DNA of 64,000 nt from Eledone cirrhosa. Its lineage: Eukaryota. The translations under genes were made by a program, and so were the position numbers. Positions 8-59,732 of the stretch are shown here, in pieces. The stretch spans positions 378,572,001-378,636,000 of the forward strand of contig OZ024741.1 in the NCBI GenBank assembly GCA_964016885.1, read 5' to 3'. The notes under the pieces are model-generated. The model was not told where the DNA came from, ran no database searches, and saw only the letters and a program-made list of their open reading frames with translations. The stretch's first letter is position 1; each line of letters starts with the position of its first letter.

Positions 8-57
<50 letters not shown>

Positions 58-345
58 CAAATAACGAAACGAAATTAAATTTCGTTTCGTTTGTAACTCA
101 CTTTTGTATGGCTGACGCTTAAACAATTAAGTTAAAAACGTACATCCACATATGTATACTGAAATACTAGTATGCATATGAATACACACACGCATACATA
201 TGTAGATGTACCGAGTTTTTCACTGGTCACTTTACTGTGAGTGTCCAGCTATTCTGTATGTAAACACACAGACAAACCGGTTTTTAGAGTCATACTGGTT
301 TTTGAGGAAACACCTTTCCTCTATTCTCCAGAAAGCCAAACAAGG

Positions 346-390
346 AATATTGAACTAGTTTCGTTGTTGTTACAACTCATCAGCAATATT
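346..390 (-). ncRNA. Minimal type I hammerhead ribozyme (family A, unit 1)
   Basis: The minus strand reads aatattg CTGATGA gttg-taacaa-caac GAAAC TA GTT caatatt: full core, 7-bp helix I, 4-bp helix II and palindromic ACTAGT helix III. Confidence 0.85.
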
Positions 391-810
391 TACTTATCTT
401 CCGCCTTTCTAGAGAATCGTAAAAGCACATATCGTTATATGCTTTTTCTATGAAAATTAGTAGTGGGCAGACTAATTTGCATAGAGCGTGAGTACGTACC
501 GGTTCAACGGAGACGATAAAAACAAATAACGAAACGAAATTAAATTTCGTTTCGTTTGTAACTCACTTTTGTATGACTGACGCTTAAACAATTAAGTTAA
601 AAATGTACATCCACATATGTATACTGAAATACTAGTATGCATATGAATACACACACGTATACATATGTAGATTTACCGAGTTTTTCACTGGTCACTTTAC
701 TGTGAGTGTCCAGCTATTCTGTATGTAAACACACAGACAAACCGGTTTTTAGAGTCATACTGGTTTTTGAGGAAACACCTTTCCTCTATTCTACAGAAAG
801 CCAAACAAGG

Positions 811-855
811 ATTATTGAACTAGTTTCGTTGTTGTTACAACTCATCAGCAATATT
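811..855 (-). ncRNA. Hammerhead ribozyme (family A, unit 2)
   Basis: Same motif as 346-390 with one distal helix I mismatch. Confidence 0.8.
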
Positions 856-1276
856 TACCTATCTTCCGGCCTTTCTAGAGAATCGTAAAAGCACATATCG
901 TTATATGCTTTTTCTATGAAAATTAGTAGTGGGCAGACTAATTTGCATAGAGCGTGAGTACGTACCGGTTCAACGGAGACGATAAAAACAAATAACGAAA
1001 CGAAATTAAATTTCGTTTCGTTTGTAACTCACTTTTGTATGACTGACGCTTAAACAATTAAGTTAAAAATGTACATCCATATATGTATACTGAAATACTA
1101 GTATGCATATGAATACACACACGTATACATATGTAGATGTACCGAGTTTTTCACTGGTCAATTTACTGTGAGTGTCCAGCTATTCTGTATGTAAACACAC
1201 AGACAAACCGGTTTTTAGAGTCATACTGGTTTTTGAGGAAACACCTTTCCTCTATTCTCCAGAAAGCCAAACAAGG

Positions 1277-1321
1277 AATATTGAACTACTTTCGTTGTTG
1301 TTACAACTCATCAGCAATATT
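1277..1321 (-). ncRNA. Hammerhead ribozyme (family A, unit 3; helix III substitution)
   Basis: Same motif, but GAAAGTAGTT replaces GAAACTAGTT. Confidence 0.65.
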
Positions 1322-1410
1322 TACCTATCTTCCGGCCTTTCTAGAGAATCGTAAAGCACATATCGATTTTTTATCATATCATATTCTCTAGAAAGGCCAG
1401 AAGATAGGTA

Positions 1411-1455
1411 AATATTGCTGATGAGTTGTAACAACAACGAAACTAGTTCAATATT
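1411..1455 (+). ncRNA. Hammerhead ribozyme (family A, inverted terminal copy)
   Basis: The plus strand reads aatattgCTGATGAgttgtaacaacaacGAAACTAGTTcaatatt. Confidence 0.85.
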
Positions 1456-1680
1456 CCTTGTTTGGCTTTCTGGAGAATAGAGGAAAGGTGTTTCCTCAAA
1501 AACCAGTATGACTCTAAAAACCGGTTTGTCTGTGTGTTTACATATAGAATAGCTGGACACTCACAGTAAAGTGACCAGTGAAAAACTCGGTACATCTACA
1601 TATGTATACGTGTGTGTATTCATATGCATACTAGTATTTCAGTATACATATGTGGATGTACATTTTTAACTTAATTGTTT

Positions 1681-5487
<3,807 letters not shown>

Positions 5488-7800: not shown

Positions 7801-7809
7801 AATTTCGAT

Positions 7810-10652
7810 AATGGACGCGCCAGTCACTCGTCTGAATCATATGGTTTTAAATCATGTAAAAACCCACCCACAAACCCTCATCTCGATGCTTTCGAACAAG
7901 ATTTAATGAAAACAACCATGAACATTAAGTTCACCAAACATAGAAATAATGAGCTGCAGCGCAACATGAAAGCACTACTCCGAAGATTGCAAAATACCAA
8001 TGGAATTGTTGTGAAAGCTGACAAGACCTCTAACGTGTATATCATGGATATCGATACGTACAATAACTTCATACGCAACGAACTACACAAAAAATATAGA
8101 AAAACAAAAGAAACTAGGCTAGCAAATATTAACAACGAGGCATATAAAGTGGTGAAGAATCTCAAGAAAGACGATAGAACCGAGCCGATTATACCCGCTA
8201 CCCCACCTTCAACCTGAAGGACCATAAGGTAAATTTTGACTCTAACCCTAAGATTAGACTTATATGCCCTTCTAAATCAGACATAGGACAAATTAGCAAA
8301 CATATACTTGACAGAGTAATAACTCAAGTGAAAAAGAAAATTGAAATTAAATTATGGGGCAATACTAGCGAAGCATTTCGCTGGTTTAATAACGTTAAGC
8401 ATAAGAATAAATCTAAGTTTATACAATTTTACATAGACGAATACTACTCTTGCATCTCACCAAGCACTTTACGTAAGGCCCTATCGTTTGCTAAGGTCAA
8501 TTCCGACCTAACGGAGGACGAAATTAATATTATTCTCGAGGCTAGAAAAACCATTATTAAGTTTGATAACTGCTACTGGGAACGTAAGGACAGACCCACA
8601 CATTTCGACATTACCATGGGTTCCAACGACTCCGCGGAGGTCACGGATCTCGTGGGAATTTACATAGCCCACATATTACATAGTAAATTTAGTAATCTAC
8701 AGGTGGGGATATACAGAGATGACGGGCTCTTATTAGTAAATAACTTGAATAACCAAAATCTTGAAAGGCTACGGAAAAATATTAGAAAATCTTTTAGTGA
8801 ACTGTGTCTAAAAATAACATACGAATACAATCTTAAAGTAGTAAACTTTCTGGACGTAAATCTTAATTTAAATACCGGACAGATACGACCGGACAGTTAC
8901 GACCCTTCCACAATGAGAACCTTACGTATATTAACTTTAACTCAAACCACCCACTCTCCATGATCAAATCAGTTCCCTGGAGTATTTCTCTTAGAATCTC
9001 TCGCCTATCGTCTAACTCTGATATGTTTAGTGAACACGCTGAATACTACAATAATGTATTAAGGAAGGCCGACCACTGGGATACAATAGAATACATTGAT
9101 AGGAATTTCCATAACACACATAGCTCTACACGAAATCAAGGAATACGTAACCGGGGGACTAAAATACAAGCGCACACACACAGTACTACCAGACATACTA
9201 ATAATAGAAAATCACCACCAAATAAATCACGTTGTAGAAAGTATATCTGGTACAATCCTATATTTAATGCCTCGATTAGTACAAAAATATCTCTTTCATT
9301 CTTTAAGTTAATCAACAAACATTTCCCTAGTTCCCATAAATACAGCAAAATTCTGAACTCTAAAACTTTTAGACTATCATACTCCACGGCACCAAACCTT
9401 GAAGCATACATAAAAAAATTAACTTAAGGCAATTAAACAACTCTACAAAACAATACATTTTAGTAACAGATGGGCAGAACGTAATATATGCCTCCCAACC
9501 ACTAAATGGGAGACGGGTATTACACAATCCACCTGTACCGCTATCACAATCTATCCATGGTATACCCGCTACCCACAACAAAGAATGTAACTGCCATCTA
9601 CCTGAAAGATGTCCATTGAAGAATGAATATCTAAAGTCCAACATTGTTTACCAATGCACGGTTGAATCGAACGACCAGAAATGGTATTATATCGGATCTA
9701 CCACCACCTCGTTTAAATCTCGCTGGTACCGTCATCGATTCTCGATCAAACATCCTAATCACCGTTTTGTGACCACGCTCGCCAACAAGACCTGGCAGCT
9801 CCGTGAACGCAACCAACAGTTCACCTTAAAAGGGATATACTTTCCAGCGCAAGTGCATATCGGAGTGGATTGAAGTACTGCAGGTTATGTAACCTTGAAC
9901 TCTTTTACATATTAAAATCCAAAAACAAACTACTTAACGATAGAATTGAACGATCATTATACTGCAACCACAAACTAAAAGCTAAATTCTCTCACTATAA
10001 AATAACTTAACATTCGAACCCGTAACTATAACATCGCTTTCTAGCTAACCACCTTCTCTTCCCCCACACTACAAGACAATACACTGCTTATCACTATGAA
10101 TGGTAACTCAGTGCAATTCAAAGATTACTACTACAAACCCAAAGTTCGCTCACCACATAAACTTCGTCTGTCCCCTCTCTACCTCTCTCTCTACATCCAT
10201 TACACTCTCTCTCTCTCTCGCCTTTGGCCTACCTCCCTCTCCACATCTATGTACCTGCCCTATGGGGCAATAAATAATTCCGACCTTAACTATCAACGCA
10301 TCTCTCCAAAAGTAACCAGTATAATAAAACCCCTACCATAACATTTTGATTAAGATATCTACAAACCACTCTCTCCTACTTCTCCAACCCCTGCATATCT
10401 CTCTCTCCCTCTCCCCTACTTTTCTCTCTTCCTTTTCTACTCTATCTTCCACAATAACCCCACTTAAGGGTATTTACATTGTACATTTTACCATTCTGCT
10501 CTGAGGATACAGTGGTCACAGCATTCGATATTTGAGTTCTGCAAATACTTGTAAATTTGCACATAGCATAACTAGGCTGTAGTACCACCATGGAAACATT
10601 TGTAAGCACACGGATTAAATTACATTTTTATGATGTCTACCTGTTATTATTC

Positions 10653-10705: not shown

Positions 10706-12385
10706 GTGGAACACTGGAAGGTAATATCCGTCTCGGTAGAGCACTCAGTCCAAAGGACGAGTTAGGTAAAAGTGGTTACACAACAATTAGTTCACCAAAC
10801 CAAGAACAATTGTTTCACATTCGCGGATCTTCAGCTCGGGATGTGTATGGTTATAGGAAAAGGAAGGACAACCGTACGCTCGCGCATGTGCAAAAACTCG
10901 GTCGCTTCACACAGGCAATACTAGACTGCATGCGGGGGTTGTAAGGGAGATAACTGCGAAAGTCCGGAAAGATTTTTGGTTGAAAATAAAATTAAAAAAT
11001 TAAAAATGAAATTACAAAGAATCAGTCTGGAGCCTTGTAGTTATGCAATAGGTGTTTGGTGACATGTGGACAACGTGTGAAAAATTCACTCTCGTGTTTA
11101 GGCAATCACTATTGCGTAATATCTTTAGGATAGTTATTCGTTCGTCAATACATAAGCAACATGTCGGATTTACCCTTGCGTATGGCTTGGACTTAGTGAT
11201 GGCTTTCCATTGAATGGAGTACCCTATACTTGAGTCCTTGAGGGACCATAAGTGGCTCGCGAGTTTCGTGGATGAACGTCTGTCCGGGTATCTGAAGGTA
11301 GACTGGTGGTTCAGGAAATGCTCCTTGAATCTGCCCTCCGCCATGCCCACATAGGATTTGACCTGCTGTGGTTTGTTTGGACGGTTGGAAGTGACCACAC
11401 CTTCATAGAATACAGCTGGTGTGTTGTATTGTTGTTGAAGGGGGCAATCTTCAGGCTTACGGCAAGAGCACCCTGGTGGGGTGTTGCTCCTAGGGCTGCT
11501 GGTGATGTGGGCCTTCATGTTCGTAGCGCAGGAGTATCCTAGTTTAACTTTGTGTCGGTTAAAGATGGAGCGGTATTTATGACCTATGGAGAAGTGTCTA
11601 ACTAAGAGGGCTAGACATTTTTCCTACATTGGTTTTAACGTTCAGTGAGACGGGAGGAGAGAAACAGATGGTTTGTCTATTGATGCGCTTACTTTTCTTA
11701 ATGGTGTTGTTGCTAGTGGGAGAGTAGGTGATAGGTTGTGAGAAGCCGCTGTTAGCCATCGCCGCGTTATAGTAGGGTGCCGCCCTGTCAAAGATAGCCT
11801 TATTAGAGGAGAGGTTTGAGATTCTAGTACTGATATTCTTACCGAAGTTTCTAAAAACAGTGGGAGGGTGGCATGAGTCCTTTTGAATGTGATTAAGTTT
11901 CTCGTTTAGCTTATGGAAGGGTCTGTGTCTGTGTGTGCGAAGGTCTAAATTAATGTCTAAGAAATTTAGGCTAGAGAGGTTGGTGGCTACTGTTATCCTA
12001 AGGCCTAACTCATTGAAGGTAGAAGCTAAGTCTTTTTTAAACCGGTCGAGGTCGTGACCACTTTTATGGCTCGATAAAGTCAATCCATCGTCACGGTATA
12101 TTCCCGTGTGGGAGTCCAGGAATCTAACACGTAATATGTCTGAGATAAAAAGGCCAACCAAGTCACATACGTCAGCACTGTCAAACGATCCCATGGAGAC
12201 GTCGAACAGGTCTGAAGATGTAGACCTCTTTGCCCAGGCTAGTGCGTCGTTGAAGAGGAGGGTTTTCCGGCGGTGAGCGAGGATTTCCCTGTCTAAACCA
12301 TCGACAGTGGTATAAGTGGTAGCGAAGTCCAACGCTTTGTTTAACAGGGTCTCAGAGATCGACGGGTAAAAATCGACAATGTTGG
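10701..12385 (-). mobile_element. 5'-truncated Penelope-like element (Nematis-like)
   Basis: ORF 11598-12332 has FDVSMGSFDSADVCDLVG and GIYRDDGL. ORF 11012-11518 has CSCRKPEDCPL and YVGMAEGRFKEH..NH (GIY-YIG). The 3' end abuts (TA)n at 10700. Confidence 0.92.
10800..10839 (-). ncRNA. Minimal HHR in PLE pLTR
   Basis: The minus strand reads ccgag CTGAAGA tccgcgaatgt GAAAC aatt GTT cttgg. Helix II is weak. Confidence 0.65.
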
Positions 12386-13029
12386 GTGTGTGTGGGGATT
12401 TGGCTGTTTCACATACATTTTGGCGTATATGTGGTGAGGCGAGAGTGCTGGGTGTGGATGTCGAGGTGGTTCGGTGTTAACGGTGCTGTGCAAATAAATG
12501 GGTGGGGTTTCTGTTGGTTAGAAGTTTGTCAAAGCGGAACAAAGGTAGGAAAATAAAAATAAATGAAACCCAGGTTAAGTATGACACTTTGGGGATTGGG
12601 ATTCTAACGGTTTTTTGTGCCGTGCTTAGCATGTAAATCATCTATATTCTCAAAAGCTTTTGTTTTACAACAAAAAAGTGATTTTGTCCAGTGTGTGAAG
12701 TGAATATAAATAAATAGATGAATGATTAAAAGAGATGGTTGCTACACTAACGCTATGGCCTAACTTATACACAAACACACACACACACAGTATACGTAAC
12801 CATAGATATGTGGTTGTAAAATGATTCGGTTGGATATGTAGAAGGGTGAATATATTAAAGTTAACCTCAGCGAGATTTGAACGTAAATAAATATAATAAT
12901 AACGATGATAAAATTGGTGGTACAAATGAAAGTAATCTAAACTTTAATAAAGGAAGGACTGCGGGACTGCGTACGGTATATTTCTTTTAATGCAGTTAGT
13001 AAAATAAGTTGGATTACTTTGAATAAATA

Positions 13030-23211: not shown

Positions 23212-23251
<40 letters not shown>

Positions 23252-23255
<4 letters not shown>

Positions 23256-24628
23256 TTGGGGAGGGTCATCTTTGCGTAATATTGCCAGAATTAATAACAG
23301 AACACACTCACTGTTTGGTTGGTTTTCGCCTCTCGCTGTCTTTTATTATATCTGCGATCTAACTTACTCGGTCCTCAATGTTGCCATTGACTGACCGGCG
23401 GTCAAAAATAATACAGATACAATATAGACACAAACACACATATATATATATAGTTTACATAATTTACATAAATCTTTCGTTGCACATCTGCAACATCGTC
23501 AGTGGTGTATATTCATTGTTCCTCCTGTTGTGTTGTATGCGTACGCCATTTTTTATTCAGTCTGTCTATATATTTATTTATTTATTTGCTTGTTTGTTTA
23601 TCTTATTTTATTTTGTCTTCTTTGCGCATCCGTTTGCGTGTGTGTATAGTGTTATGTGTGATGTGTGACTAGTGTGTATAGTGTTGTGTCTGCTGGGTGA
23701 CTAGTGTGTGTTTATGTGCTTGTTGTTATTGTGCTTGTGTATGTATTTATTTATCTTATTTTATTTAATTTTATTTACTTATTTATACTTCTCTTAGGTC
23801 AGTGTTGTTTGTTTGGGTGTTGTTGTTGTTCCACTCATTCTTTCTGTTTAGCTTTGGTCTTCTAATTTCTATTTCACTGGCCTCTCTGATTTGCCTATCT
23901 GCTGGGTCATTCCTATGTTTAGATATTATTCTAATTTCTAGAAATTAGAATAATATCTAAACATAGGAATGACCCAGCAGATAGGCAAATCAGAGAGGCC
24001 AGTGAAATAGAAATTAGAAGACCAAAGCTAAACAGAAAGAATGAGTGGAACAACAACAACACCCAAACAAACAACACTGACCTAAGAGAAGTATAAATAA
24101 GTAAATAAAATTAAATAAAATAAGATAAATAAATACATACACAAGCACAATAACAACAAGCACATAAACACACACTAGTCACCCAGCAGACACAACACTA
24201 TACACACTAGTCACACATCACACATAACACTAAACACACACGCAAACGCATGCGCAAAGAAGACAAAATAAAATAAGATAAACAAACAAGCAAATAAATA
24301 AATAAATATATAGACAGACTGAATAAAAAATGGCGTAGGCATACAACACAACAGGAGGAACAATGAATATAACACCACTGACGATGTTGCAGATGTGCAA
24401 CGAAAGATTTATGTAAATTATGTAAACTATATATATATATATGTGTTTGTGTCTATATTGTATCTGTATTATTTTTGACCGCCGGTCAGTCAATGGCAAC
24501 ATTGAGGACCGAGTAAGTTAGATCGCAGATATAATAAAAGACAGCGAGAAGCGAAAACCAACCAAACAGTGAGTGTGTTCTGTTATTAATTCTGGCAATA
24601 TTACGCAAATATGACCCTCCCCAAGTAT
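23252..24628. mobile_element. ~1.38-kb spacerless inverted repeat made of two head-to-head PLE 3' ends
   Basis: The centre is aatttctagaaatt at ~23940. The right arm translates DRQIREASEIEIRRPKLNRKNEW, resembling a GIY-YIG C-terminus. There is an HHR-like motif in each arm. Confidence 0.85.
24372..24414 (+). ncRNA. HHR-like motif (mirror copy 23466-23508, minus)
   Basis: CTGACGA t-gttgca-gatg-tgcaac GAAAGATTTA. The core and helix II are clear; helix I is weak. Confidence 0.6.
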
Positions 24629-24720
24629 AACAATATCTGTTTCGACACACGATTTCATATAAAAAAACCTCGCAAAAACTAATTCATCGCCGCTATATAA
24701 ATATATATATATATATATAT

Positions 24721-26944: not shown

Positions 26945-28860
26945 ACTATAGAACATGTGTGTTTACGTATGTCATTGTGTTTATATGTGGGTAGAGATGT
27001 GTGCTGATCTAGGTATGTATGTTGACGTGTGTATGTTGTGGGTTCGTCTTAGGGAGAAGTGTTTAGACGGGGTCCGTATTTGTTAATAAAGTAAGATTCC
27101 TTGCTGATGCGCTGGGTGTCAGTGGCATTAACTTTAAATTTGTAGAGGGAAAGATTCTGAAGTTGGGATGATTTGGGGCAGCACAGGTATCAATGTGTTC
27201 ACTCAGTGGTATTTTCCTGTAATCCCGTATTTTAATTTTGGATCTATGGACAGTCATGCGTTGGCCGAGGCTGTTGTTGGTCTGGCCTATGTATTGTTCT
27301 CGACAATCTGATCAAGTTAATACACATATTAGATTTTCCGATGCACATGTGAAATTGTGTTTTACTATAAAACGTTGTTCTTCTTTGAAATAGAATTCCG
27401 AACCGTCTATTAGGTTGATGCAAATGCCACAGTTGGGTCTATCGCATTTCTTTACTGTTGGTGTCGTTGTGGTGGTTGGCAGTACATTGGCATGTGTTAG
27501 GATGTTTTCCATTGACTTAGATTGTCTTTTGCTCTTTATGATATCGTGTGTTCGTAGGATTTGGTTCATTATATGGTCCTTTTTCAACACAGGGATGTTC
27601 TGGAGGATGGTGTCAAGGGCCTCATTGTTGTGGGGGCTGTGTGTGGAGATGTATGGAAGAGCTTTTAGTTTCGGTTGATTTACTTTAGGGTGTCTAAGCT
27701 CCTGGGTACTGAGTTTTAGGCCACGTTGGATTCCATTGTCAATTAGTGATGCAGGGTAGTCCCTGCCTATGAGTGTGCCCTTTAGTTCTTGTAGCCGTAA
27801 GTAGCAGGTGTTTTTATTGGATAATATAGTACAGATTCTCTTGGCTAAGTTGTAGGGAATATTAATTTTAACGTGTCTAGGGTGGCAAGAGCTGAAAGGA
27901 TGATATTGCTTGGAGTCTGTGGGCTTGTAGTATATGTCTGTTTCTATTTTCTTGTTATGGATCTTAATGAGGATGTCGAGGAAGGGGAGTTGTTGATGGC
28001 TGTATTCCATCGTGAAGTTAATATTCGTGTTGAGCCCATTTATAAGTGTGTGAAATTCTTTAAGTTTTTCGATGTTTTTGTGCCAAAGGATGAAGCAGTC
28101 ATCTAGATATCGCTTCCAGTTCCTTTCTATATGTAAGTGGAGAGTGTTTCCAAATGTGTTTAGGACTTTAGTGTAGAGGGTGATTTCCAGGTATCCCATG
28201 ACTAGATTGGCATAAGTGGTGTCTGTTTTAGTTCCCATAGCGGTCCCAGACATACACCTCCCAATTTTTATTTTCCCACACGCGACATACATCCACAACA
28301 CGCATAAACACCACACACACACGTGCGTACCACCACCTATTTACACATTCAGCCTCCGGAATACTCTATCCACACACGCACACACACGCCGACCTACACC
28401 CCACCCCACACACACCTCTTCCTGAACATGCAACCCCGTTCTTCCCCCAACCCTTGCTTTCTGATACACACACACACACACACCACACACACGTACACCT
28501 ACACACACACACACCAGCCTTCCCCGCTCGGACACCCGTCTCCCTCTTCCCACTCCACCCGCCACCACCCATACACGCCCCACACCCTTCCACAACCTGT
28601 TTTAGCCCATTTTAATTTTATTTTGATCATGTCTTTATTTTTAATTTCATTTGCACCGTTTCCTCTCACTCCCTTTTTGCTATATGTCTCTCCGCCACTC
28701 CCCTACACACCCTTTGAACTCTCTTCCCACACACTTTTCACCTAAAGAAGGGCTTATGCCCGAAACGTCGTTCCCCACCACCACCCCACTCTCAAGAGCG
28801 TGAAATTAATAAACCTTTGTTCGTACTGCCTCTCTGTTTTATTCCCGTTCAATGTTTCAC
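26945..28860 (-). mobile_element. 5'-truncated Neptune-like PLE with inverted pLTR (~28255-28860)
   Basis: ORF 27312-28322 has GTAMGT, WKRYLDDCF, LPFLDILI, TDIYYKPTD, the Zn-knuckle CDRPNCGIC and CASENLI. After a stop it continues YIGQT..RMTVHR. Confidence 0.9.
28738..28775 (+). ncRNA. Minimal Neptune-type HHR, core mutated
   Basis: CTAAAGA agggc-ttat-gccc GAAACGTC. G5 is changed to A relative to CTGAAGA. Confidence 0.65.
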
Positions 28861-31999: not shown

Positions 32000-34876
32000 G
32001 GTTACATACAAACAATAGCTAAATCAGAAGCTTACAGTATGAATTAGATTCTGCACCACCCATTGAATACAAGATAAATTTTGATGTAGACAAAAAGCCA
32101 ATTCCCAAGCACAGAGGCCACTACAATGCTCCAGCCGCAAAAGAAGTTACAGTAATTATTCCAGGCGACGAGTATAGGAAGAGATATATTATTATTGAAG
32201 GGAGATGAAACACGATGCAGCGGATAAATGCAATCCACCGATTATTTGATGAACTCTGGTATCCATTAATCTGTGTATTTGGCCTTCATGGATATCACTT
32301 TGGTATAAGAAGACTAAAAATAGATTTTAAAGCAAGAGCTCCTAAACTGAACAAAAAAAAACCCAGTAATATGCATGAAATTCTATGCTTACGTTTTCAA
32401 TGCTTCAATATTCTTCATCTTTCACGTGAGTTCTTCCAGCAATTTGCAATTGATATGTATACAGAAATTGAAGGAGAAAGCCTTCTTTACATTAGAACAG
32501 ATTCGAAAGATCTCCGTGCATCATACTACATTCACCTGACAGATGCATTGAATAATGAAGGATCAATGGGTGTTGATACCTTTGGACATACTTGCGTTAT
32601 TTTCCAATCAAAATTTACTGGAAGTCAACGTTATATGCATGAGCATACCCAAGATGCACTTACACGAGTCAGATACTATGGTCACCCATACCTATTCATC
32701 ACATTCACATGTAACCCAACATGGCATGAAATAAAAGGTGAAATTTATCATCATCAAGAACCCCCAAATCGCCATGATATTATTACTATGGTGTTCAGAC
32801 TAAATGTCATAATGCTAATGAATCTCCTAAGAAAAGCTAAAATCTTTGGACCAGTCAAATGTGACATGTACACAATTGAATGGCAACTCGAGGATTGGCA
32901 CATGCCCACAATTTTATTTGGATACATGAAAATCTTTGACCAATTGAAATTGACTTCTTTATCTCAGTTGAACTGTCTGATCCAGAGCAAGTTCATTTCC
33001 TGCATGAAATGTTCAAGTACCAGATAATTCATGGGCCCTGTGGTTCAATTAATCTATCCTCCCCATGCATGAGGGATAATATGTGTACCATGAACTATCC
33101 AGGTCCTTCTGTACAAGAAACCCAAACTGGAGAATGTGGCTTCCGCCTTTACAGGAGTAGAACATCTGGGCATGATAGATTCACATTGAAGAAAAAGTTG
33201 AGAAATGGGCAAGAATTCATCATTGACAATCGGTTGGTTGTGCCTTACTGTTCTCTTCTTACAAAAACTTTCAAAGTTGAATTCTGAAACTCTGTTAAGT
33301 CTATTAAGTATGTTTTCAAATATATAAAGACAGGTTTAGATGCTGCAATGTTGACTCTAATACAGAATGGCAGTCAGCAGATATAGAAAAATGACAAAGT
33401 TGCACAGTATGAGATTGGAAGATATATAAGTAGCAATCAGGCTTTTTGGCGCATCTTCAATTTTCCCATTCATAAGAGGCACCCAGCCATCATTTATCTG
33501 TGTGATTATCTACAATCTAGATTCTGAAGAATAGCCAAAGGGTTATCTTTACAAAGAAAACAGCCTTGCAACAAGCACTTTCTTTAAAAGAAACTAACCT
33601 TATTGTCTTTTTTAACTTGTGTCAAGTAAATAAAGATGCAAGAAAACTCCTTTACCTAGAATTACCGAAGTATTACACCTGGAGAAACCATACATGGCAC
33701 AAGAGTAAACGTGAGGTTGGCGCTCTTGCAAGAGTTTACAGTGTCCATCCAAGCCAAGCACAATGCTGCTACTTACGTCTCCTTTTGCATGAAGTACCTG
33801 GTCCAAATCATTCCATGAGACACTACCAGTCATTCCGAGTGGAACAAGAGCTGATGAAATAAAAACATGCATTAAGTCTTCTCACATATGGAATAAAGTA
33901 AAGAATTATTCGTTCCATTCTAACATGAGAGCTTATTTATATAGGGACCAATGAACAGAACAGTTTTCAACCCGACTCCTCCAATTAGGAAATGGGACAG
34001 TACCAATTGTTGGGTATGGTTTTATCAACTTGGCTCATATTGCTATCATGGTGGATTCACCAGCTGAATTGAAAAACAGGGTATTTCCAAAGTTAAGTAA
34101 TAATTATAATGTACCAAAATGGTTGTGAGAATAGGCAATTCCTGCTAAAAAAAAGTGAGACAGTAGTAAGGATTAATTGAATATGATTCTAACAGTCATT
34201 GAGGAGTACATATTAGTTGATTCAGTCCTTGATGAACATCAGTGTTCCTTACTTCTCTTGAGCCACCTGCAGCTCCTCCACATAACGATTTTCAGAAGGT
34301 AGGAGTCCCAATAATGCTTCTAAGAAATATAGAACCTAAATTCTGCAATGGGGCAAATTTGATTGTGAAAGCATTATCGCTTAATTTGTTAGAAGCTAAC
34401 ATCATCCCTGGATTTGCCTCTGTGAAAGATTCTTTCATTCCAAGAATTCCAATCAAACAAACATATATGACATATGAGTTCAAACAAATGTGATTCCCTG
34501 CGAGACTTTGCTTCAAAATGTCTATCAATAAAGCTCAAGGCCAGACTCTGAAATATACAAGATTGCACTTAATTAGGCCTTGCATTTCTCGTAGTCCATA
34601 TTTTGTTCGTTACTCCAGGTTTGATAGTTTAAAAGCCTTATTTTTTTATTTTCCAAACCAGAAAAAAAGAATGTTATTTACACATAAGCTCTTACAGAAT
34701 TCCCTTCAGCATTTGTGATAGAGTTTATCTCCTTTCACAAAAGTGTTTATTTTTTTTTTTTTCAATGCAATTGGAGGATAAATGGGATTTAGAATAGCAC
34801 ATTCCAATATTGTGCTTATTTCTTCCAATATATTATGAACATTTCCATTCCGAGCAAAGCCAGGTGTCACTGCTAG
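32000..34876 (+). mobile_element. Degenerate, internally deleted Helitron (Rep/helicase pseudogene)
   Basis: Rep motifs YGHPYLFITFTCNPTW, IEWQ, HGPCG and IDNRLVVPY. Pif1-type motifs [14 protein letters not shown] and SINKAQGQTL. The 3' end reads ccgagcaaagccaggtgtcactgCTAG|t at 34876. Confidence 0.92.
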
Positions 34877-37776: not shown

Positions 37777-37978
37777 CATATAAATATATATACACATATA
37801 TGTGTACATAGACACATACATACACATCAATATACACTCGTACAAAAATATACATACATGCAAAGAGAAAAGCGTGCTAGTTGTAGTTATGGCAAAAAGA
37901 AGATAAAGTAACATTGTAGTAGTGAAATGAGAGAAACTAGGATCTAGGATCAAATGATTGCAGCAGCTGAGAAGGAGT

Positions 37979-39073
37979 AAGATTAAATCCATAGCACGTA
38001 GTATATCCCTCCGAATATCCCGCCTATCCTCAAACCTAGAAATCTTTAACGAGCATGCTGACTATTATAATGCAGCATTAAGTAGGGCCGGTCATAAAGA
38101 TAAACTACAGTATATAGTGAATAAGGACAACATAAACAATCCTAGTAATTTCTACTCCAACCGCTCACATAATAGTAGGAATAGCTTGACTAGACATAGT
38201 GTTAGACATGTAACACCTAGAGTAAACGGCCAAAACACTAATAACGTAAACCCTAGAAACAATAGAAGAAATAGACAAAGAAAATACCTATGGTTCAACC
38301 CAATATTCAACTCCACTATAAAAACTAGACTGCCCTCTACATTCTTTAGACTAATAGATAAACACTTCCCTATCTCGCATAGATATCACAAAATACTCAA
38401 TAGATCTACTATAAAACTCTCTTTCTCAACAGCAGCTAACATAGAATCACACATACGTAAGATCAACCACAGAAATATCTCAAGTAAATCAATTGCACCT
38501 ATACATAAGCACAAACTCATCACAACATCACAACCACAAGCGCATACAAACGCGCAGCAGCAAAACCCCATGGGGCATATATCACAACCCACTTATAACA
38601 GGGTACTAAATAGGAATGTAAAAGCTGCACAAAATAGCGCCTTAAACTGCAACTGTCACCTCCCAGATAGGTGCCCATTGGCGAACAGATGTCTCGATTC
38701 GAGCCTGGTGTACATGTGCACTGTCATCTCGGGTAACTCCACCTGGAATTACATAGGATCCACCGCGGGTTCTTTTAAGAAAAGATGGTATGTGCACAGG
38801 CACTCAATGAAAAATCGAGCACTTATGGGTTCCACCACCCTCGCCAGAAAAATATGGGAATTGAAGGACAGCAACGCTAGCAACACTATCAACTGGTTGA
38901 AGTTGTCGGCTGCTAAAACCTATAGTACAGGGATGTCCTATTGTGGGCTGTGTGATCTTGAGCTATTGTATATCCTTAGAAATGTTAAAAGGCTACTGAA
39001 TAATAAGTTAGAAAGATCTATCTTCTGCAGACATAGAATAGCCACTAAATTCATAAGATTCAAACCTCCGTGA
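37979..39073 (+). CDS. Uninterrupted C-terminal part of PLE ORF (thumb, linker, GIY-YIG)
   Basis: SISLRISRLSSN, LWFNP, CNCHLPDRCPL, LVYMC..YIGST..FKKRW..H, CGLCDLE and CRH. There is no native start codon. Confidence 0.85.
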   Translation, partial: KIKSIARSISLRISRLSSNLEIFNEHADYYNAALSRAGHKDKLQYIVNKDNINNPSNFYSNRSHNSRNSLTRHSVRHVTPRVNGQNTNNVNPRNNRRNRQRKYLWFNPIFNSTIKTRLPSTFFRLIDKHFPISHRYHKILNRSTIKLSFSTAANIESHIRKINHRNISSKSIAPIHKHKLITTSQPQAHTNAQQQNPMGHISQPTYNRVLNRNVKAAQNSALNCNCHLPDRCPLANRCLDSSLVYMCTVISGNSTWNYIGSTAGSFKKRWYVHRHSMKNRALMGSTTLARKIWELKDSNASNTINWLKLSAAKTYSTGMSYCGLCDLELLYILRNVKRLLNNKLERSIFCRHRIATKFIRFKPP

Positions 39074-40652: not shown

Positions 40653-40718
40653 TATTTCATTATATATATTTCGGGGATATCATATTAACAATATGCTATG
40701 CCTTCATCAGACAAAATA
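40653..40718 (-). ncRNA. Type I HHR in 3' pLTR
   Basis: The minus strand reads tattttgt CTGATGA aggcatagcatattgttaatatgatatcccc GAAA tatata TA atgaaata. Confidence 0.8.
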
Positions 40719-42150: not shown

Positions 42151-44364
42151 CTACATTTTAAATTTAAATTTATATTTAAACGTTGAGTTTAATCTATGTT
42201 TGCAACAACTGAATAAATTTGTCCGTAGGTTAAGGGAATTTTTAGATTTTAGTATAAAGAATATCTCCTCTGCGCAGAGGTCACATGTCTCAGAGGATGA
42301 ATTAAAAGGAATCCCTCTTGAGACTATATTCCAAGCCGTCGAATATCTAACGTTATCTAGCTTAAGTTGCCAGAGTACCCCTGATAGTGCCGTTGAAGAT
42401 TTTTTATTTGGATCTGTGAAAGAATTCTTGTGGTTATTATAGCGAAGTTTAAATTCCGTCGATGTGGAACCGACGTAGTTAAAAGAATTAGAGTCAGTAT
42501 TAACATTACAATTGTATACTATATTTTTAACTAAGCAGTTGTTATTTAACGGACATTTAGATCTATCTCTACAGTTACATTTGTTAACTTGTATATTATT
42601 TATGCTATTATCAGTAGGTTTTAAGTTCCTATTATTTATTCTATTAATATTTTGTGCTAAATTTTTGGTGGATGAGTAAGTTAATTTAATTGTATGCCTA
42701 TTGAAGATTGAGTGATACCTATGTGTTCTAGGGAAGCGATTATCAAGAGCTTTGAAAAATAATTTAGCGATGTGGGTTTTAATGTTTAGTGAGAAAGGGG
42801 GGGCAAACCAAATTATGTTCCTAGTTCTATTTCTTTTTTGTCCTTTGGAATTATTGTAATGCTTTCTATTATAGTTGTTAATGTTGTTGCCGTAATTAAA
42901 AAAGTTGTTACTTTGTTTAGTTTGTCTATCATTATCTATGTACATAATCTTATCAGCATACCCTGCCCTAGCTAGTGCATCATTATAGTACTGGGCCTTT
43001 TCGTCAAAAATCTTTCTATTCGACGAGATCCTAGAGATACGTTTTTGGACTGAGTTTACTATAGTGTTTTTGACAGATCTGGGGTGGTTAGAGTTAAAGT
43101 TGACATAGTTTAAGTTTTCATTCAACTTGTGAAAAGGATAGTGGAGACATGTGTTGAGATTTAATGTTATATCTAGGAAATTGACTATTCTATGGTTGTT
43201 CTCAATTTCTATTTTAAGGTTAAAGTAATTAAAACATTTTGTAATTTGTTTACATTTTCTATTTAGTTCAGGGTTATTATTATTAATAAGTAAAAGCATG
43301 TCATACCTATATAAACCTCCGGTAGTACCAGGTATTTTCCTATGTAGCGAATTGATTAAAAATAAGCCCACAAGGTCAGTTACCTGAGCTGAGTCGGAAG
43401 ATCCCATACTTATGTCAAAATTGCTATCTCTATCTGCTCTGGTCCATAATTTGTCATTAAATTCTATCAAAGTTTTCCTAGCCGATAATATAATATGCAT
43501 TTCTTTGCTAGTTAGGTCCGTATGTTTGAATGCGTAATTTAGTGCCTTATTTAGTAGACTAGGGGTAATAGAAGAATAATAGTTAGCTATATCAAGTTGA
43601 ATAAACCTATTATTATTGTCATATTTAATTTGCCTAAACCACTCAACAACCTCTCCAGTTCCCTTCCACAAGCTCAGGTTAGATACACAATCCAAGTTCT
43701 TAATTTGCTGTATCACCCTGTCAAGAATGTTTTTGCATAATTTGCCCAGGTCCGATTTTGAAGGTGCGATCAATCTAACTGGCAGGTCATTTTCAAAATT
43801 CCTCTTGTGGTCCTTCATATTGATCTTCGGTTTCCTGGGCACGAAAGGTTGGGTTCTGTTCTCAATTTCCAACTCATGCATTATACAAGATGCTTCAACA
43901 TTCATTTTCTCAAGTTCGGCCTTATCTGCTACCTTGTATTTTTTCCTCAGCTCTTTCAGTATGAGGCCATTATACATGTCTTTCCGCACTCCATAGAGGT
44001 TGTTGGTCTTGTCAGATTTCACCAAGATCTTCTCAGTTTTCTCTAAGCTCTCAATGTTATCCTTAATGCCTTTCAGATATTCCTGGCCTTTAAAGTTTCT
44101 CTTGAATTTGACCCCTTGTATGATAGAAATTATATCGTTTTCAAAGTCAGATAAAAGTTTGTTACGGGGTGGATTTCTTTTAGATTTGAAAACTTTGTTT
44201 AAGTCCGAGATATTTTCGTCTGCATTAGATTTATCAAAGTGGAATGAACGCCACCTGATTCTCCTTATAAAAGAGTCAGATTTATCTATTAGTTGTTTTA
44301 CAAAGTCTTTGTTTCTAGGTAGAGGTATGTCTTTTAGAGAGGAAGTAATCTTAAAGAATTCCAT
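42151..44364 (-). CDS. PLE polyprotein: reverse transcriptase + C-terminal GIY-YIG endonuclease (737 aa)
   Basis: VKSDKT, PVRLI, QLDIANYYSSI, FDISMGSSDSAQVTDLVG, LYRYD (normally YRDD), VNFLDITL, CNCRDRSKCPL, IVY..YVGST..FKLRYNNH, CDLC and CKH. Confidence 0.95.
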   Translation of the reverse strand: MEFFKITSSLKDIPLPRNKDFVKQLIDKSDSFIRRIRWRSFHFDKSNADENISDLNKVFKSKRNPPRNKLLSDFENDIISIIQGVKFKRNFKGQEYLKGIKDNIESLEKTEKILVKSDKTNNLYGVRKDMYNGLILKELRKKYKVADKAELEKMNVEASCIMHELEIENRTQPFVPRKPKINMKDHKRNFENDLPVRLIAPSKSDLGKLCKNILDRVIQQIKNLDCVSNLSLWKGTGEVVEWFRQIKYDNNNRFIQLDIANYYSSITPSLLNKALNYAFKHTDLTSKEMHIILSARKTLIEFNDKLWTRADRDSNFDISMGSSDSAQVTDLVGLFLINSLHRKIPGTTGGLYRYDMLLLINNNNPELNRKCKQITKCFNYFNLKIEIENNHRIVNFLDITLNLNTCLHYPFHKLNENLNYVNFNSNHPRSVKNTIVNSVQKRISRISSNRKIFDEKAQYYNDALARAGYADKIMYIDNDRQTKQSNNFFNYGNNINNYNRKHYNNSKGQKRNRTRNIIWFAPPFSLNIKTHIAKLFFKALDNRFPRTHRYHSIFNRHTIKLTYSSTKNLAQNINRINNRNLKPTDNSINNIQVNKCNCRDRSKCPLNNNCLVKNIVYNCNVNTDSNSFNYVGSTSTEFKLRYNNHKNSFTDPNKKSSTALSGVLWQLKLDNVRYSTAWNIVSRGIPFNSSSETCDLCAEEIFFILKSKNSLNLRTNLFSCCKHRLNSTFKYKFKFKM

Positions 44365-44543
44365 TTTTCAGTTATAATATAAAGCGCTCAACAGTATTGG
44401 AGCAAGATACATGTAAAGTTATATTTAAAATTGTTGGGTTACAACTAGTGAATATTTATAACTGATATAAAAGCACTCGACAAATATTTGGAGTATATTT
44501 ACAATATTAAATAAATGGAAAACTATATTTATAAAACCATATT

Positions 44544-45929: not shown

Positions 45930-45999
<70 letters not shown>

Positions 46000-46378
46000 T
46001 ACGTATACGTACATACATACATGTATACAGACGTACAGTAGTGTGTATATATATATACATACATGCACACATGCACACATGTACGTGTGGATTCACCGAA
46101 CATTTATTATAATGCTCGCTGTGTTTGTAAACAAACATCCCGATTTAAGCCGTACAGTGTCTAGCAACCACGTTGCTCATTTGTTCAACACGCCAAAGGA
46201 ACGCTGTACTATTTTCAAGCTTATTAGCTATCGTCAGCAACGTATACCTTCCTGCCAGATTGTTGAGCGTCTGAAAGTATATACTTTCCTTATGCATATT
46301 AATGGCTGAACAGCCTAATTTGCATATCGAGTGAGTTAATCGGCCGGGGTACCGAAATCGATAAAAGGAAAGAAAGGT

Positions 46379-46450
46379 GATGTGTTAGTGTAAATGGTAT
46401 CACAGTGGTCCGGATAACCAAAGATGTGGGTTCGTCTCCCATGTACGTCA
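46379..46450 (+). tRNA. tRNA-like pseudogene / SINE head
   Basis: 72 nt that fold as a cloverleaf: wobble-rich acceptor gatgtgt/gtacgtc, A-box tagtgtaaatgg, stem tggt/acca and T arm tggg-ttcgtct-ccca. A T-run follows shortly downstream. Confidence 0.55.
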
Positions 46451-46803
46451 ATACTCATCTTTTTCCATTTCTCCGAGGGTTCTTAACCCCACTAACAGGC
46501 TAAATAATTTTTTTAATTGCTTTAGCCAAAATTCGGCGATAGCTAACATTTCTAATAATATATATATATATATAAATACTACTGTACGTCTATATACATG
46601 CATGTATGTAATTATACATACTTATATTTAAGTAACAGCCGTACTAAGAGTGAGAAAGGAATTTACGTTTCATTTTTTCCGTTTATCGTTTTCGATACCC
46701 TGGCCAATTAACTCACCCGATAGGCAAATTAGGTAGCTCAGCCTTTAATATGCATAAGGAAAGTATACACTTTCAGATGTTCAACCATTTGGCAGGAAGA
46801 TAT

Positions 46804-46846
46804 ACGTTGCTGACGATAGCTAATCAGCTTGAAACTAGTACAGCGT
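46804..46846 (+). ncRNA. Minimal type I HHR (family B)
   Basis: acgttg CTGACGA tagct-aatc-agctt GAAAC TA GTA cagcgt. Confidence 0.85.
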
Positions 46847-47110
46847 TCCTTTGTCAGGGTTGAACAAATGAGCAACGTGGTTGCTAGACAATGTACGGCT
46901 TAAATCGGGATGTTTGTTTACAAACACAGCGAGCATTATAATAAATGTTCGGTGAATCTAAACGTACATATATATATGTGTACTTGTATATATATATATA
47001 TATTCATACTACTGTACGTCTGTATACATGTATGGATGTACGTATACATACTTATCTTTAAGTAACAGCTTTACTAGGAGTGAGAAATGAAATTTCGTTT
47101 CATTTATACC

Positions 47111-47172
<62 letters not shown>

Positions 47173-47447: not shown

Positions 47448-47479
<32 letters not shown>

Positions 47480-47682
47480 AGTATGTACTAGTACATACAA
47501 GTATGTATACAGACGTACACTTATATGCATATACATATACATACATGCACACGTATATATATGTACGTATGGATTCACCGAACATTTAATATAATGCTCG
47601 GTGTGTTTGTAAACAAACATCCCGTATCAAGCCGTAGTGTCTAGCAACTATCGTTGGGCGTTTGTTCAACACTGACAAAGGA

Positions 47683-47725
47683 ACGCTGTACTAGTTTCAA
47701 GCTTATTAGCTATCGTCAGCAACGT
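47683..47725 (-). ncRNA. Minimal type I HHR, first family B monomer (repeated in every unit)
   Basis: The minus strand reads acgttg CTGACGA tagct-aata-agctt GAAAC TA GTA cagcgt. The predicted cut is between 47689 and 47688. Confidence 0.85.
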
Positions 47726-47791
47726 ATACCTTCCTGCCAGATTGTTAAACGTATATACTTACCTTAAGCATATTAACGGCCGAGTAGCCCA

Positions 47792-47799
47792 ATTTGCAT
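47792..47799 (-). promoter_or_regulatory. Octamer ATGCAAAT, conserved in most family B units and in family A (475-482, 941-948)
   Basis: Exact ATTTGCAT at the homologous position in both families. Function is inferred only. Confidence 0.4.
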
Positions 47800-48784
47800 A
47801 TCGAGTGGGTTAATCGGCCGGGTGCACCGAAAAGGATAAACGCAAAATATGAAACTAAATTTCATTTCCCATTCTTAGTACGGCTGTTACTTAAATATAA
47901 GTATGTACACGTACATAATATATGTATACAGATGCACAGTAGTATGTATATATATATACATACATGCACACATATATATATACGTACGTATGGATTCACC
48001 GAACATTTAATATAATGCTCGGTGTGTTTGTACACAAACATCCCGTATCAAGCTGTAGTGTCTAGCAACCATCGTTGCTCGTTTGTTCAACACTGACAAA
48101 GGAACGATGTACTAGTTTCAAGCTTATTAGCTATCGTCAGCAACGTATAACTTCCTGCCAGATTGTTGAACGTATATATTTACCTTATGCATATTAACGA
48201 CTGAGTAGCCCAATTTGCATATCGAGTGGGTTAATCGGCCGGGTGCACCGAAAACGATAAACAGAAAAAATGAAACGAAATTACATTTCCCAATCTTAGT
48301 ACGGCTAGTACTTAAATATAAGTATGTAGACGTACATACATATATGTATACAGACGTACAGTCTTATCATAAATATAAATATACATTCACACATATATAT
48401 ATGTGTACGTATGGATTCACCGAACATTATTATAATGCTCGGTATGTTTATAAACAAACATCCCGTATCAAGCCGTAGTGTCTAGCAACAACCGTTGCTC
48501 GTTTGTTCAACACTGACAAAGGAACGCTGTACTAGTTTCAAGCTTATTAGCTATCGTCAGCAACGTATACCTTTCTGCCAGATTGTTGAACGTATATACT
48601 TACTTTATGCATATTAAAGACTGAGTAGCCCAATTTGCATGTCGAGTGGGTTAATCGGCCGGGTGCACCGTAAACGATAAACGGAAAAAATGAAGCGAAA
48701 TTTCATTTCCCACTCTTAGTACGGCTGTTACCTAAATATAAATATGTACACGTACATACATATATGTATACAGACGTACAGTAG

Positions 48785-48821
<37 letters not shown>

Positions 48822-51800
48822 GGACACATATTTATATGTACGTATGGATTCACCGAACAGTTATTATAATGCTCGGTGTGTTTTTAAACAAACATCCCGT
48901 ATCAAGTCGTAGTGTCTAGCAACCATCGTTGCTCGTTTGTTCAACAATGACAAAGGAAGGCTGTATAAGTTTCAAGCTTATTAGCTATCGTATGCAACAT
49001 ACACCTTCCTGTCATATTGTTGAACGTATATACTTATCTTATGCATATTAAAGGCTGAGTAGCCCAATTTTCATATCGAGTGGGTTAATCGGCCAGATTG
49101 TTGAACATATATACTTATCTTATGCATATTAACGGCTGAGTAGCCCAATTTTCATATCGAGTGGGTTAATCGGCCGGGTGGACCGAAAACGTTTATGGAA
49201 AAAATGAAACGAAATTTCATTTCGCAGTCTTAGTACGGCTGTTAGTTAAATATAAGTATGTACACGTACATACATATATGTATACAGACGTACAGTCTTA
49301 TGTATATATATATATACATGCACACATATATATATGTATACGTATGGATTCACCGAACATTTATTATAATGCTCAGTGTGTTTGTAAACAAACATACCGT
49401 ATCAAGCCGTAGTGTCTAGCAACCATCGTTGCTCTTTTGTTCAACACTGGCAAAGGAACGCTGTACTAGTTTCAAGCTTATTAGCTATCGTCAGCAACGT
49501 ATATATTCCTGCCAGATTGTTGAACGTATATACTTACCTTATGCATATTAACGGCTGAGTAGCCCAATTTCCATATCGAGAGGGTTAATCGGCCGGGTGA
49601 AACGAAAACGATAAACTGAAAAAATGAAACGAAATTACATTTCCCACTCTTAGTACGGCCGTTACTTAAATATAGGTATATACACGTACACAATATATGT
49701 ATACAGACGTACAGTAGTATGTATATATATATATACATACATGGACATATATATATATATATGTACGTATGGATTCACCGAACATTTATTATAATGCTCG
49801 TTTTTTTTTGTAAACAAACATCCTGTATCAAGCCGTAGTGTCTAACAACCATCGTTGCTCGTTTGTTCAAGACAGACAAAGGAACGCTCTACTAGTTTTA
49901 ATCTTATTAGCTATCGTCAGCAACGTATACCTTCCTGCCAGATTGTTGAACGTATATATTTACCTTATGCATATTAACGGCTGAGTAGCCCAATTTGCAT
50001 ATCGATTGGGTTAATCGGCCGGGTGCACCGAAAACGTTTATGGAAAAAATGAAACGAAATTTCATTTCGCAGTCTTAGTACGGCTGTTAGTTAAATATAA
50101 GTATGTACACGTACATACATATATGTATACAGACGTACAGTAATAAGTATATATATATACATACATACACACATATATATAACTACGTATGGATTCACAG
50201 AACATTTATTATAATGCTCGGTGCGTTTGTAAACAAACATCCCATATCAAGCCGTAGTGTCTAGCAACCATCGTTGCTCGTTTGTTCAACACTGAAAAAG
50301 GAACGCTGTACTAGTTTCAATTAGCTATCGTCAGCGACGTAAACCTTCCTGTCAGATTGTTGAACATATATACTTACCTTATGCATATTAACGGCTGAGT
50401 AGCCCAATTTGCATATCGAGTGGGTTAATCGGCGTGGTGCACAGAAAACGATAAACATAAAAAATGAAACGAAATTACATTTCCCGCTCTTAGTACGGGT
50501 GTTACTTACATATAATTATGTACACGTACATACATATATGTATACAGACGTACAGTAATAAGTATATATATACATACATGCACACATATATATATATATG
50601 TACGTATGGATTCACCGAACATTATTATAATGCTCAGTTTTTTGTAAACAAACATCATGTATCAAGCCGTAGTGTCTGACAACCACCGTTGCTCGTTTGT
50701 TCAAAACTGACAAAGGAACGCTGTACTAGTTTTAAGCTTATTAGCTATCGTCAGCAACGTATACCTTCCTGCCAGATTGTTGAAAGTATATACTTTCCTT
50801 ATGCATATTAACAGCTCAGCACTCTTATTTGCATATCGAGTGGGTTAATCGGCCGGGTGCACCGAAAACGATAAACGGAAAAAATGAAACGAAATTACAT
50901 TTCCCACTCTTATTACGGCTGTTAGTTAACTATAAGTATGTACACGTACATAGATATATGTATACAAACGTACAGTAATAAGTATATATATATACATACA
51001 TGCACACATATATATATGTACGTATGGATTCCCCGAACATTTATTATAATGCTCGTTGTGTTTGTAAACAAACATCCCGTATCAAGCTGTAGTGTCTAGC
51101 AATCATCGTTGCTCTTTTGTTCAACACTGACAAAGGAACGCTGTACTAGTTTCAATCTTATGAGCTATCGCCTGCAACGTTTACCTTCCTGTCAGATTGT
51201 TGAACGTATATACTTACCTTATGCATATTAACGGCTGAGTAGCCCAATTTGCATATCCAGTGGGTTAATCGGCCGGGTGCACCGAAAACGATAAACGGAA
51301 AAAATGAAACGAAAATTAATTTCCCATTCTTAGTACGGCTGTTACTTAAATATAAGTATGTACACGTACATAATATATGTATACAGACGTACAGTATTAT
51401 GAATATATATGTACATTCATGCACACATATATATATATATATATATGTACGTATGGATTCACCGATCATTTATTATAATACTCGGTGTGTTTGTAAACAA
51501 ACATCCCGTATCAAGCCGTAGTGTCTAGCAACCATCGTTGCTCGTTCGTTCAACACTGACAAAGGAAAGCTGTACTAGTTTCAAGCTTATAAGCTCTCGT
51601 CAGCAACTTATACCTTCTTGCCAGTTTGTTGAACGTATATACTTACCTTATGCATATTAACGGCTGAGTAGCCCAATTTGCATATCGAGTGGGTTAATCG
51701 GCTGGGTGCACCGAAAACGATATACGGAAAGAATGAAACGAAATTTCATTTCCCACTCTTAGTACGGCTGTTACTTAAATATAAGTATGTACAAGTACAT

Positions 51801-56509: not shown

Positions 56510-56552
<43 letters not shown>

Positions 56553-59545: not shown

Positions 59546-59732
59546 CAAATAATTGCATAGATAGCACAAATCGAATAAGCACTGAACCGGGTAGTTTTAA
59601 AAATAAGCTTATGCAATTAATCTGTCAATAGAATTATTAACAGGTTAATTGTAATACTCGGGAGATTAATACAAATATACATTCAGCGAGATTCGTATTT
59701 CGGCTGGTAGAAAAAGCGAAACGATAAAAGCA

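Follow-up and report, generated by a model that had tools for sequence, protein, structure and literature searches.

The window analysed here is a stretch of 64,000 nucleotides from the Eledone cirrhosa genome. It harbors insertions of two families of hammerhead-bearing tandem repeats, A and B, together with a Penelope-like element (PLE) that is a candidate helper for their movement. The main features are as follows.

51 to 1365, minus strand: direct arm of family A, made of 2.8 head-to-tail units (465-466 bp each); the 3' end, at 51, is the "long" one and adjoins (TA)n.
51 to 119, minus strand: "tail" of family A, from the short to the long 3' end, with a hairpin at 63-91.
343 to 395, minus strand: intact hammerhead of A unit 1.
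808 to 860, minus strand: hammerhead of A unit 2, with a single helix I mismatch (core at 848).
1274 to 1326, minus strand: hammerhead of A unit 3, with the helix III palindrome broken (core at 1314).
1366 to 1382, unstranded: 17-nt filler at the head-to-head junction of the A insertion, repeating nearby sequence in part.
1383 to 1681, plus strand: inverted arm of family A, covering unit positions 99-397 and finishing 3' at the "short" end, which lies 69 nt ahead of the long end and adjoins (TA)n.
1406 to 1458, plus strand: intact type I hammerhead of the A inverted arm, with a predicted cut after 1448 (GUU).
42151 to 44367, minus strand: 738-aa ORF of a young Hydra-clade PLE, candidate helper and positive control, with its own hammerhead core at 40710.
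45994 to 47116, both orientations: second B insertion, head-to-head, with the short end on the left and the long end on the right.
47476 to 56372, minus strand: direct arm of family B, ~21 units of ~420 bp, terminating at the short end.
56402 to 56515, plus strand: inverted arm of family B, terminating at the long end.

The A array lies where a preliminary description of this DNA had placed it. Its units occupy 51-515 (465 bp), 516-981 (466 bp), and 982-1365 (partial) between (TA)n tracts, with the minus strand as RNA sense. The whole locus, 51-1681, is a complete insertion: direct arm, filler, and inverted arm, with (TA)n on both sides. The filler appears to have originated by end-joining repair. 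Arrays of both families consist of head-to-tail units without LTR architecture, with a GC content of 35% and 37%, respectively. The longest ATG ORF is 22-80 aa across four monomers. A tRNA-like sequence at 46379-46450 (RF00005, 38.5 bits), in the center of the second B insertion, is possibly a SINE or a captured RNA. Rfam miRNA matches were rejected as products of inversion and TA hairpins.

The window also contains other mobile sequences. Additional fragments of Hydra-type elements, one Neptune-like fragment, fragments of Helitrons, and one LINE-type RT fragment lie at 7801-9873, 11012-12476, 27312-28340, 32209-33862, 37958-39073, 58460-59596, and 60224-60655; elsewhere, ORFs of the Neptune-like family reach ~780 aa. 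An inverted insertion of ~1.4 kb, near-perfect and set between TA tracts (23250-24690), contains another type of hammerhead-like motif, with cores at 23502 (minus) and 24378 (plus), and has no homology to A or B. At least four more hammerhead-like families occur (21181, 61241/61376, 62517/63338, 10834, and 40710), two of them in inverted pairs, and the cores at 10834 and 40710 are downstream of Hydra-type ORFs.

A and B units encode a type I hammerhead. Helix I has 6 bp, followed by an internal loop and three further pairs; helix II has four positions and a 6-nt loop; and helix III is one pair closed by a palindromic CUAG. The Rfam model Hammerhead_HH9 matches all four A ribozymes of the window (E 6e-7 to 4e-5), each under the gathering score of 52, and a scan of the window at the gathering threshold detected no ribozyme family. 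Two of these four ribozymes carry decay mutations. Folded alone, the 65-nt ribozymes do not exceed shuffled sequences in stability (z −0.8 and −0.2), which is expected of a motif of this kind. Cut-to-cut monomers were obtained at 47 loci, with units of 420-538 bp. The predicted cut site reads GUU in A, GUC in a variant of A, and GUA in B. The architecture is the canonical form of metazoan type I hammerheads, which requires a second copy to cut (PMC4209133; PMC7229834). Cleavage is predicted from the fold only, and the mismatch at the helix II base of the B group counts against it; eight of nine Xenopus retrozymes gave no cutting in vitro (10.64898/2026.07.22.740005).

We find that A and B are homologous. 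The five matches quoted earlier for a collinear relationship are all present in the sequence, one of them (gtacat...gtatac) inside a low-complexity alternating tract. When one unit of each is aligned globally (A, 466 bp; B, 420 bp), 276 of 407 aligned bases are identical. With the hammerhead excluded, the alignment reaches z = 13.5 (global) and 16.8 (local), scores attained by none of 300 shuffles. The preliminary description had noted that a similarity lost on masking low-complexity sequence would count against homology. With the alternating TA-rich tract removed as well as the hammerhead, z is 10.0 (global) and 12.4 (local), and none of 1000 dinucleotide shuffles reaches either. The bulk of the signal is carried by the 3' part, while the part 5' of the alternating tract is weak alone (z ~3, reached by 3 and 13 of 1000 shuffles). 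Against A or B, none of three further stretches of the window that carry hammerheads exceeds z = 1.8. Thus, because the alignment is significant without both ribozyme and TA tract, the homology is real, and a single non-coding tandem repeat with a hammerhead has given rise to both A and B as separate lineages.

Both families are dispersed throughout the 3.0-Gb genome. The exact core pattern has 40,341 matches, compared with 14 for the reversed control. Copies are found on many contigs, at 97-99% identity for A and 93-96% for B. Five lineages can be distinguished: A; A', which is 98% like A and differs by one compensatory helix II change; B; B2 (484-538 bp); and B3 (434 bp). Similarity is 82-95% among the B-group lineages and 67-71% between them and A. 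Lineage B3 emerged from a pattern with helix II starting A or C (1,703 matches versus 19 in the control). Searches for deeper lineages yielded a single match for a G/C helix III loop pattern, which is a mutated B copy, and 32 for helix II starting GC or GG, mostly mutated A or B copies plus unrelated singletons. Within arrays, A units differ at 0-11 positions (≤5 in 9 of 12 arrays), and between arrays mostly at 9-20. Young B arrays show 0-1.4 differences within, and identical units are common to arrays on at least three contigs. Two loci at 81.85-81.87 Mb, separated by 8 kb, are both full of same-strand A units, which suggests a single A array of at least 27 kb.

A or B is also contained in contigs from runs X1, X2, X4, X5, and X6, which may include the assembly's own sample. 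Their sequence passes abruptly into TA at the long end and, for A, at the short end as well; in run X1 the breaks fall at 516 and 585, the equivalents of the A tail boundaries. Runs X4 and X6, which carry two other organism codes, contain B along with A at ~97-98% identity.

The ribozyme has changed in a paired fashion between lineages. As had been described, the hammerhead core is invariant, with 11 of 11 core bases identical between A and B. Across the helices, 13 of 20 sites differ and 9 of 10 pairs survive (p about 0.001-0.008); among 200,000 random placements, 173 reach this survival under equal rates and 1,689 under transition bias. Unpaired ribozyme sites are identical at 21 of 25 positions. 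The claim that helix pairing is preserved is therefore correct for 9 of 10 pairs overall, but helix II keeps three of its four. The helix II strings originally quoted (agct/agct) are one base out of register with the 6-nt loop. In the proper register, helix II reads G-C, U-A, U-A, G-C in A and U.U, A-U, G-C, C-G in B. The lost pair is at the helix II base, which is G-C in A, U.U in B, and C.A in B3.

For a wider view of covariation, we used the 12 ribozyme strings that are present in at least two loci, out of 87 distinct strings (75 singletons excluded). In this set, 95.2% of cells are paired and 25 cells are changed on both sides, which none of 500 shuffles matched; slid controls gave 30-48%. 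Six pairs are changed on both sides, and measures based on pair counts were matched by 252 and 451 of 500 shuffles. About three branches account for these six double changes: four separate A from the B group, one lies within A, and one separates B from B2 and B3. An R-scape-type test is underpowered for this reason. Ribozyme covariation is thus good, though phylogenetically shallow, evidence. The preliminary description's "strong" evidence of selection on the ribozyme is supported as to homology and compensatory change and overstated as to strength, given the roughly three branches. Covarying hammerhead families inside one genome have been described before (PMC4209133).

Paired changes could also be mutational, produced by hairpin-correcting template switches with no selection for catalysis. 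The units are indeed rich in perfect hairpins, and the small number of branches involved is in keeping with such events. However, conservation extends to unpaired positions (11 of 11 in the core, 21 of 25 unpaired sites), the helix I arms are 31 nt apart, and non-catalytic hairpins covary far less. We therefore regard a template-switch origin as unlikely and favor selection on the ribozyme. Such selection is limited to source elements, and copies in the genome decay neutrally after insertion. In the window's B array, 11 of 187 core cells are changed, compared with 233 of 4603 elsewhere (Fisher P = 0.61). In the A copies the figures are 0 of 132 and 66 of 4040, and the difference is not significant.

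As circles, the monomers have folds whose stability far exceeds that of shuffled sequences (z −6 to −15, 0 of 25 each), with 64-71% of bases paired, partly due to TA hairpins. In both families, with different sequences, helix I is prolonged by a predicted long stem in which the two monomer ends meet. The duplex formed by a family's own halves of this closing stem has −23.1 (A) and −18.1 (B) kcal/mol, compared with −9.9 and −5.2 kcal/mol for swapped halves; the A 5' half with the B2 3' half is an exception (−16.2 kcal/mol). Beyond the ribozyme, covariation at the level of pairs is weak, with many one-sided breaks. When the A structure is laid onto B, 9 of 12 double changes are kept (5.5 expected), and 5 of 10 are kept in the reciprocal comparison of the B structure onto A (4.4 expected). 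Two motifs common to A and B, ATGCAAAT and GTAAACA, have a likeness to transcription-factor sites but sit in predicted hairpins.

We show that insertions of both families have two fixed 3' ends and a TA target. The survey of ends covers 94 non-redundant loci, after 26 overlapping or unrelated loci were dropped by hand. Among 48 A ends, 26 are long, 18 are short, and 4 are other, with the short site 69-77 nt upstream of the long site. Among 105 B-group ends, 40 are long, 38 are short, and 27 are other, a class that includes alignment breaks; here the short site is 50-59 nt upstream, as aligned. In the A/B alignment, each of the two sites has its homolog at the corresponding position of the other family. 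A TA run of at least 7 follows 42 of 44 fixed A ends and 70 of 78 fixed B-group ends. Exceptions to the target are one A insertion that stops in (CAT)n and long ends of the B group that continue into (AC)n (loci L095, L027, and L123).

Head-to-head insertions nearly always combine one long with one short end (31 of 32, with "other" ends dropped), a result with a chance of ~8e-9 were ends drawn 50:50. In the literature searched, which included few subscription papers, we found no description of this rule for retrozymes. Inverted insertions with a tail on a single side are a hallmark of Penelope (PMC8557442; PMC3846280). In vitro, a PLE protein cuts and extends both strands from two internal RT start sites, to which the one-sided tail corresponds (PMC11167929). 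Self-priming has been put forward as a rival account of head-to-head palindromes (PMC3846280). Two other origins were rejected. Classical twin priming on one RNA misfits the inner ends of long arms, which by eye are scattered and not at the short site, and a Helitron-type origin misfits the two alternative ends, the head-to-head arms, and the ribozyme.

The 5' ends of the insertions do not pile up at the ribozyme cut (0 of 53 for A, 4 of 106 for the B group, in lists that include some register artefacts), and the main template is therefore something other than a cut linear monomer. In A, the start sites are 230-300 nt past the cut, yet arms span many units. Arms of this length, together with the lack of 5' pile-up, point to a circle or an uncleaved multimer as template. 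Some single A arrays contain unit variants with a period of 4, 3, or 7 (L050, L059, and L052), and in L051 the same two-unit order of variants recurs in the two arms. At least some templates were therefore multi-unit.

These patterns bear on whether A and B are simply satellites, that is, orphan Penelope terminal repeats spread by unequal crossing-over in which the ribozyme is no longer relevant. Long arrays with higher-order periodicity (L047, L048, and L050) and the neutral decay of copies are compatible with this, and local amplification of a terminal repeat has been proposed by Li et al. (10.64898/2026.07.22.740005). Nonetheless, crossing-over does not explain dozens of insertions on many contigs with base-precise ends in (TA)n and a long-plus-short rule, nor identical units in young B arrays on at least three contigs, nor the fold retained by lineage founders. 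It likely extends some arrays later, but leaves their ends unexplained. We consider a plain satellite origin very unlikely.

Instead, A and B are likely non-LTR retrozymes, and their RNA is likely copied by a Penelope-like RT with a GIY-YIG endonuclease, probably of the Hydra clade. Behind this reading it is observed directly that A and B are homologous, conserve the hammerhead fold, are dispersed, end at two sites, and follow the one-long-one-short rule; from these observations we infer the remaining steps. The arrays would be transcribed, and neighboring hammerheads would pair through the palindromic helix III and be cut as dimers. The long stem may then bring the monomer ends together and so favor ligation to a circle. 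The helper protein would cut both strands of a (TA)n target, with cDNA starting at the long site on one strand and at the short site on the other, in A some 230-300 nt downstream of the ribozyme cut. Both cDNAs would read through several units of circular or uncleaved multimeric RNA and would finally be joined head to head by repair.

The preliminary description called A and B replicons. In the sense of RNA-to-RNA replication this name is unsupported, because the insertions bear the footprint of a Penelope-like enzyme. Viroid-like replicons copy RNA to RNA and often carry ribozymes in both polarities. Were A and B such replicons, the genomic arrays would be by-products, and the high stability of the circular monomers, due in part to TA hairpins, could be read in this way. 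Yet the ribozyme is found in one polarity of the unit only, DNA copies account for all variation observed, and the retrotransposon footprint is present in every well-resolved insertion. A viroid-like nature is thus extremely improbable, and a retrozyme copied by a PLE enzyme is preferred.

The best candidate for that enzyme is encoded in the window itself. RWR, DKT, and CxCx5C motifs can be read in the 738-aa ORF at 42151-44367, which has no Pfam match. Features reported for the Hydra clade are RWK, DKT, and CxCx5C motifs, a hammerhead, and a (TA)n target (PMC8557442). All 150 scored matches to this element family are 100% identical, and by this measure the family is young. It has its own hammerhead and a tail of ~90 nt, as against 69-77 nt in A and 50-60 nt in the B group, and the tail sequences differ. 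As a control, 18 inverted insertions of the family were inspected, and 14 of these combine a long and a short end in (TA)n. One of the remaining four has neither end in view, one is cut by the locus edge, one is short-short through an alignment break, and one is long-long. By target, end rule, and youth, Hydra appears to be the best helper candidate.

Sequence comparison reveals no parent element for A or B in the material sampled. The terminal regions of the window's two Hydra families score z ≤ 1.8 against A and B, and the 3' flanks of 30 Neptune-like loci do not align with either. In the same 30 Neptune-like loci, the CUGANGA core, in the pattern used, is absent within 900 bp after the endonuclease. 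Matches to PLE proteins near A and B loci are never in terminal-repeat register (119 loci, by eye). Of 430 atypical B long ends, 30 were inspected, and none is followed by such a match in register. No ORF for RT plus GIY-YIG was found between A or B repeats at the loci examined, nor was any A or B unit joined to an ORF there.

The helper could also belong to another PLE family (Neptune, Naiad, or an unsampled one) of which A and B are deletion derivatives, by an otherwise identical mechanism. Several observations are consistent with this. A and B have no sequence likeness to the Hydra terminal repeats sampled; the parent search examined three PLE families, while first-look candidates numbered 62,065 and 8,417; of 57 Xenopus retrozyme families, 24 have matches among known elements, which are PLEs in nearly every case (10.64898/2026.07.22.740005); and Naiads favor (TA)n too, as Hydra families do (PMC8557442). 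Against it, an A or B unit joined to an ORF was not found at the loci examined, and only the Hydra family is shown here to be young, TA-targeted, and subject to the same end rule. Derivation from another PLE family is accordingly possible, but we hold it to be less probable than a Hydra-clade helper.

It might also be that A and B are a long-independent lineage of structured RNA, with no sequence kinship to their current helper, and not broken Penelope ends. We offer this idea only tentatively. If true, Hydra-clade enzymes would be hijacked by RNA shape alone. The code in cis would be a dimer-cutting hammerhead, an end-joining stem, and two RT start sites that are each next to a hairpin, kept through 32% divergence and mapped by the comparison of A with B.

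A and B have the retrozyme features tested: a hammerhead per unit over two or more units in a row, units of a few hundred bp, GC below 50%, no encoded protein, dispersal, and coexistence with PLEs. Satellite-like arrays with a weak palindromic helix III and dimer cutting are known from newt satellite 2 and the schistosome satellite hammerheads; A and B have such arrays and such a helix III, with dimer cutting predicted, and the sequences are presumably unrelated. With metazoan non-LTR retrozymes, A and B share non-coding tandem units with a canonical type I hammerhead, GC below 50%, several families per genome, and PLE coexistence (PMC7229834; 10.64898/2026.07.22.740005). Axolotl HHR_Amex1 has the same helix III, and HHR_Amex2 the same U.U at the helix II base as B (PMC7229834). 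The 420-538 bp units of the A and B groups are at or over the 150-450 bp given in one account (PMC7229834) and within the 51-972 bp of another (10.64898/2026.07.22.740005). Head-to-head arms, two fixed ends, and (TA)n targeting are features of A and B that are absent from the available portions of these retrozyme descriptions (PMC7229834; 10.64898/2026.07.22.740005).

The latter features are those of PLEs. Like A and B, Hydra-clade PLEs form partial tandems with an inverted, 5'-truncated arm, have a tail on one side only, insert into (TA)n, and carry the hammerhead upstream of the start sites (PMC8557442; PMC11167929). Tails of endonuclease-bearing PLEs are reported as 30-40 nt, whereas those of A and B are 50-77 nt (PMC8557442; PMC11167929). 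In addition, A and B differ from PLEs in having no ORF, and they have no homology to the terminal repeats of the three PLE families sampled. Non-autonomous Chlamys elements such as MRC1 are, like A and B, PLE partners with multicopy head-to-tail insertions. They generally resemble their autonomous family at the 3' end, while A and B show the reverse, and most Chlamys are described as being without the canonical hammerheads that A and B have (PMC8557442).

Ribozyme covariation itself is expected and would not surprise a specialist. The enzyme that moves animal retrozymes is still a hypothesis; PLEs were named as strong candidates (PMC7229834), and a further account reports sequence kinship in frogs and derives retrozymes from PLEs (10.64898/2026.07.22.740005). 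Here, A and B retrozymes and an apparently active PLE of one genome leave the same insertion footprint. To these known systems the locus adds a ribozyme, a closing stem, and both end sites kept through ~32% divergence, with an autonomous PLE as control within the same genome. With A and B, the in vitro assay already available gains a defined RNA to work on, a protein candidate, and start sites predicted to the exact position.
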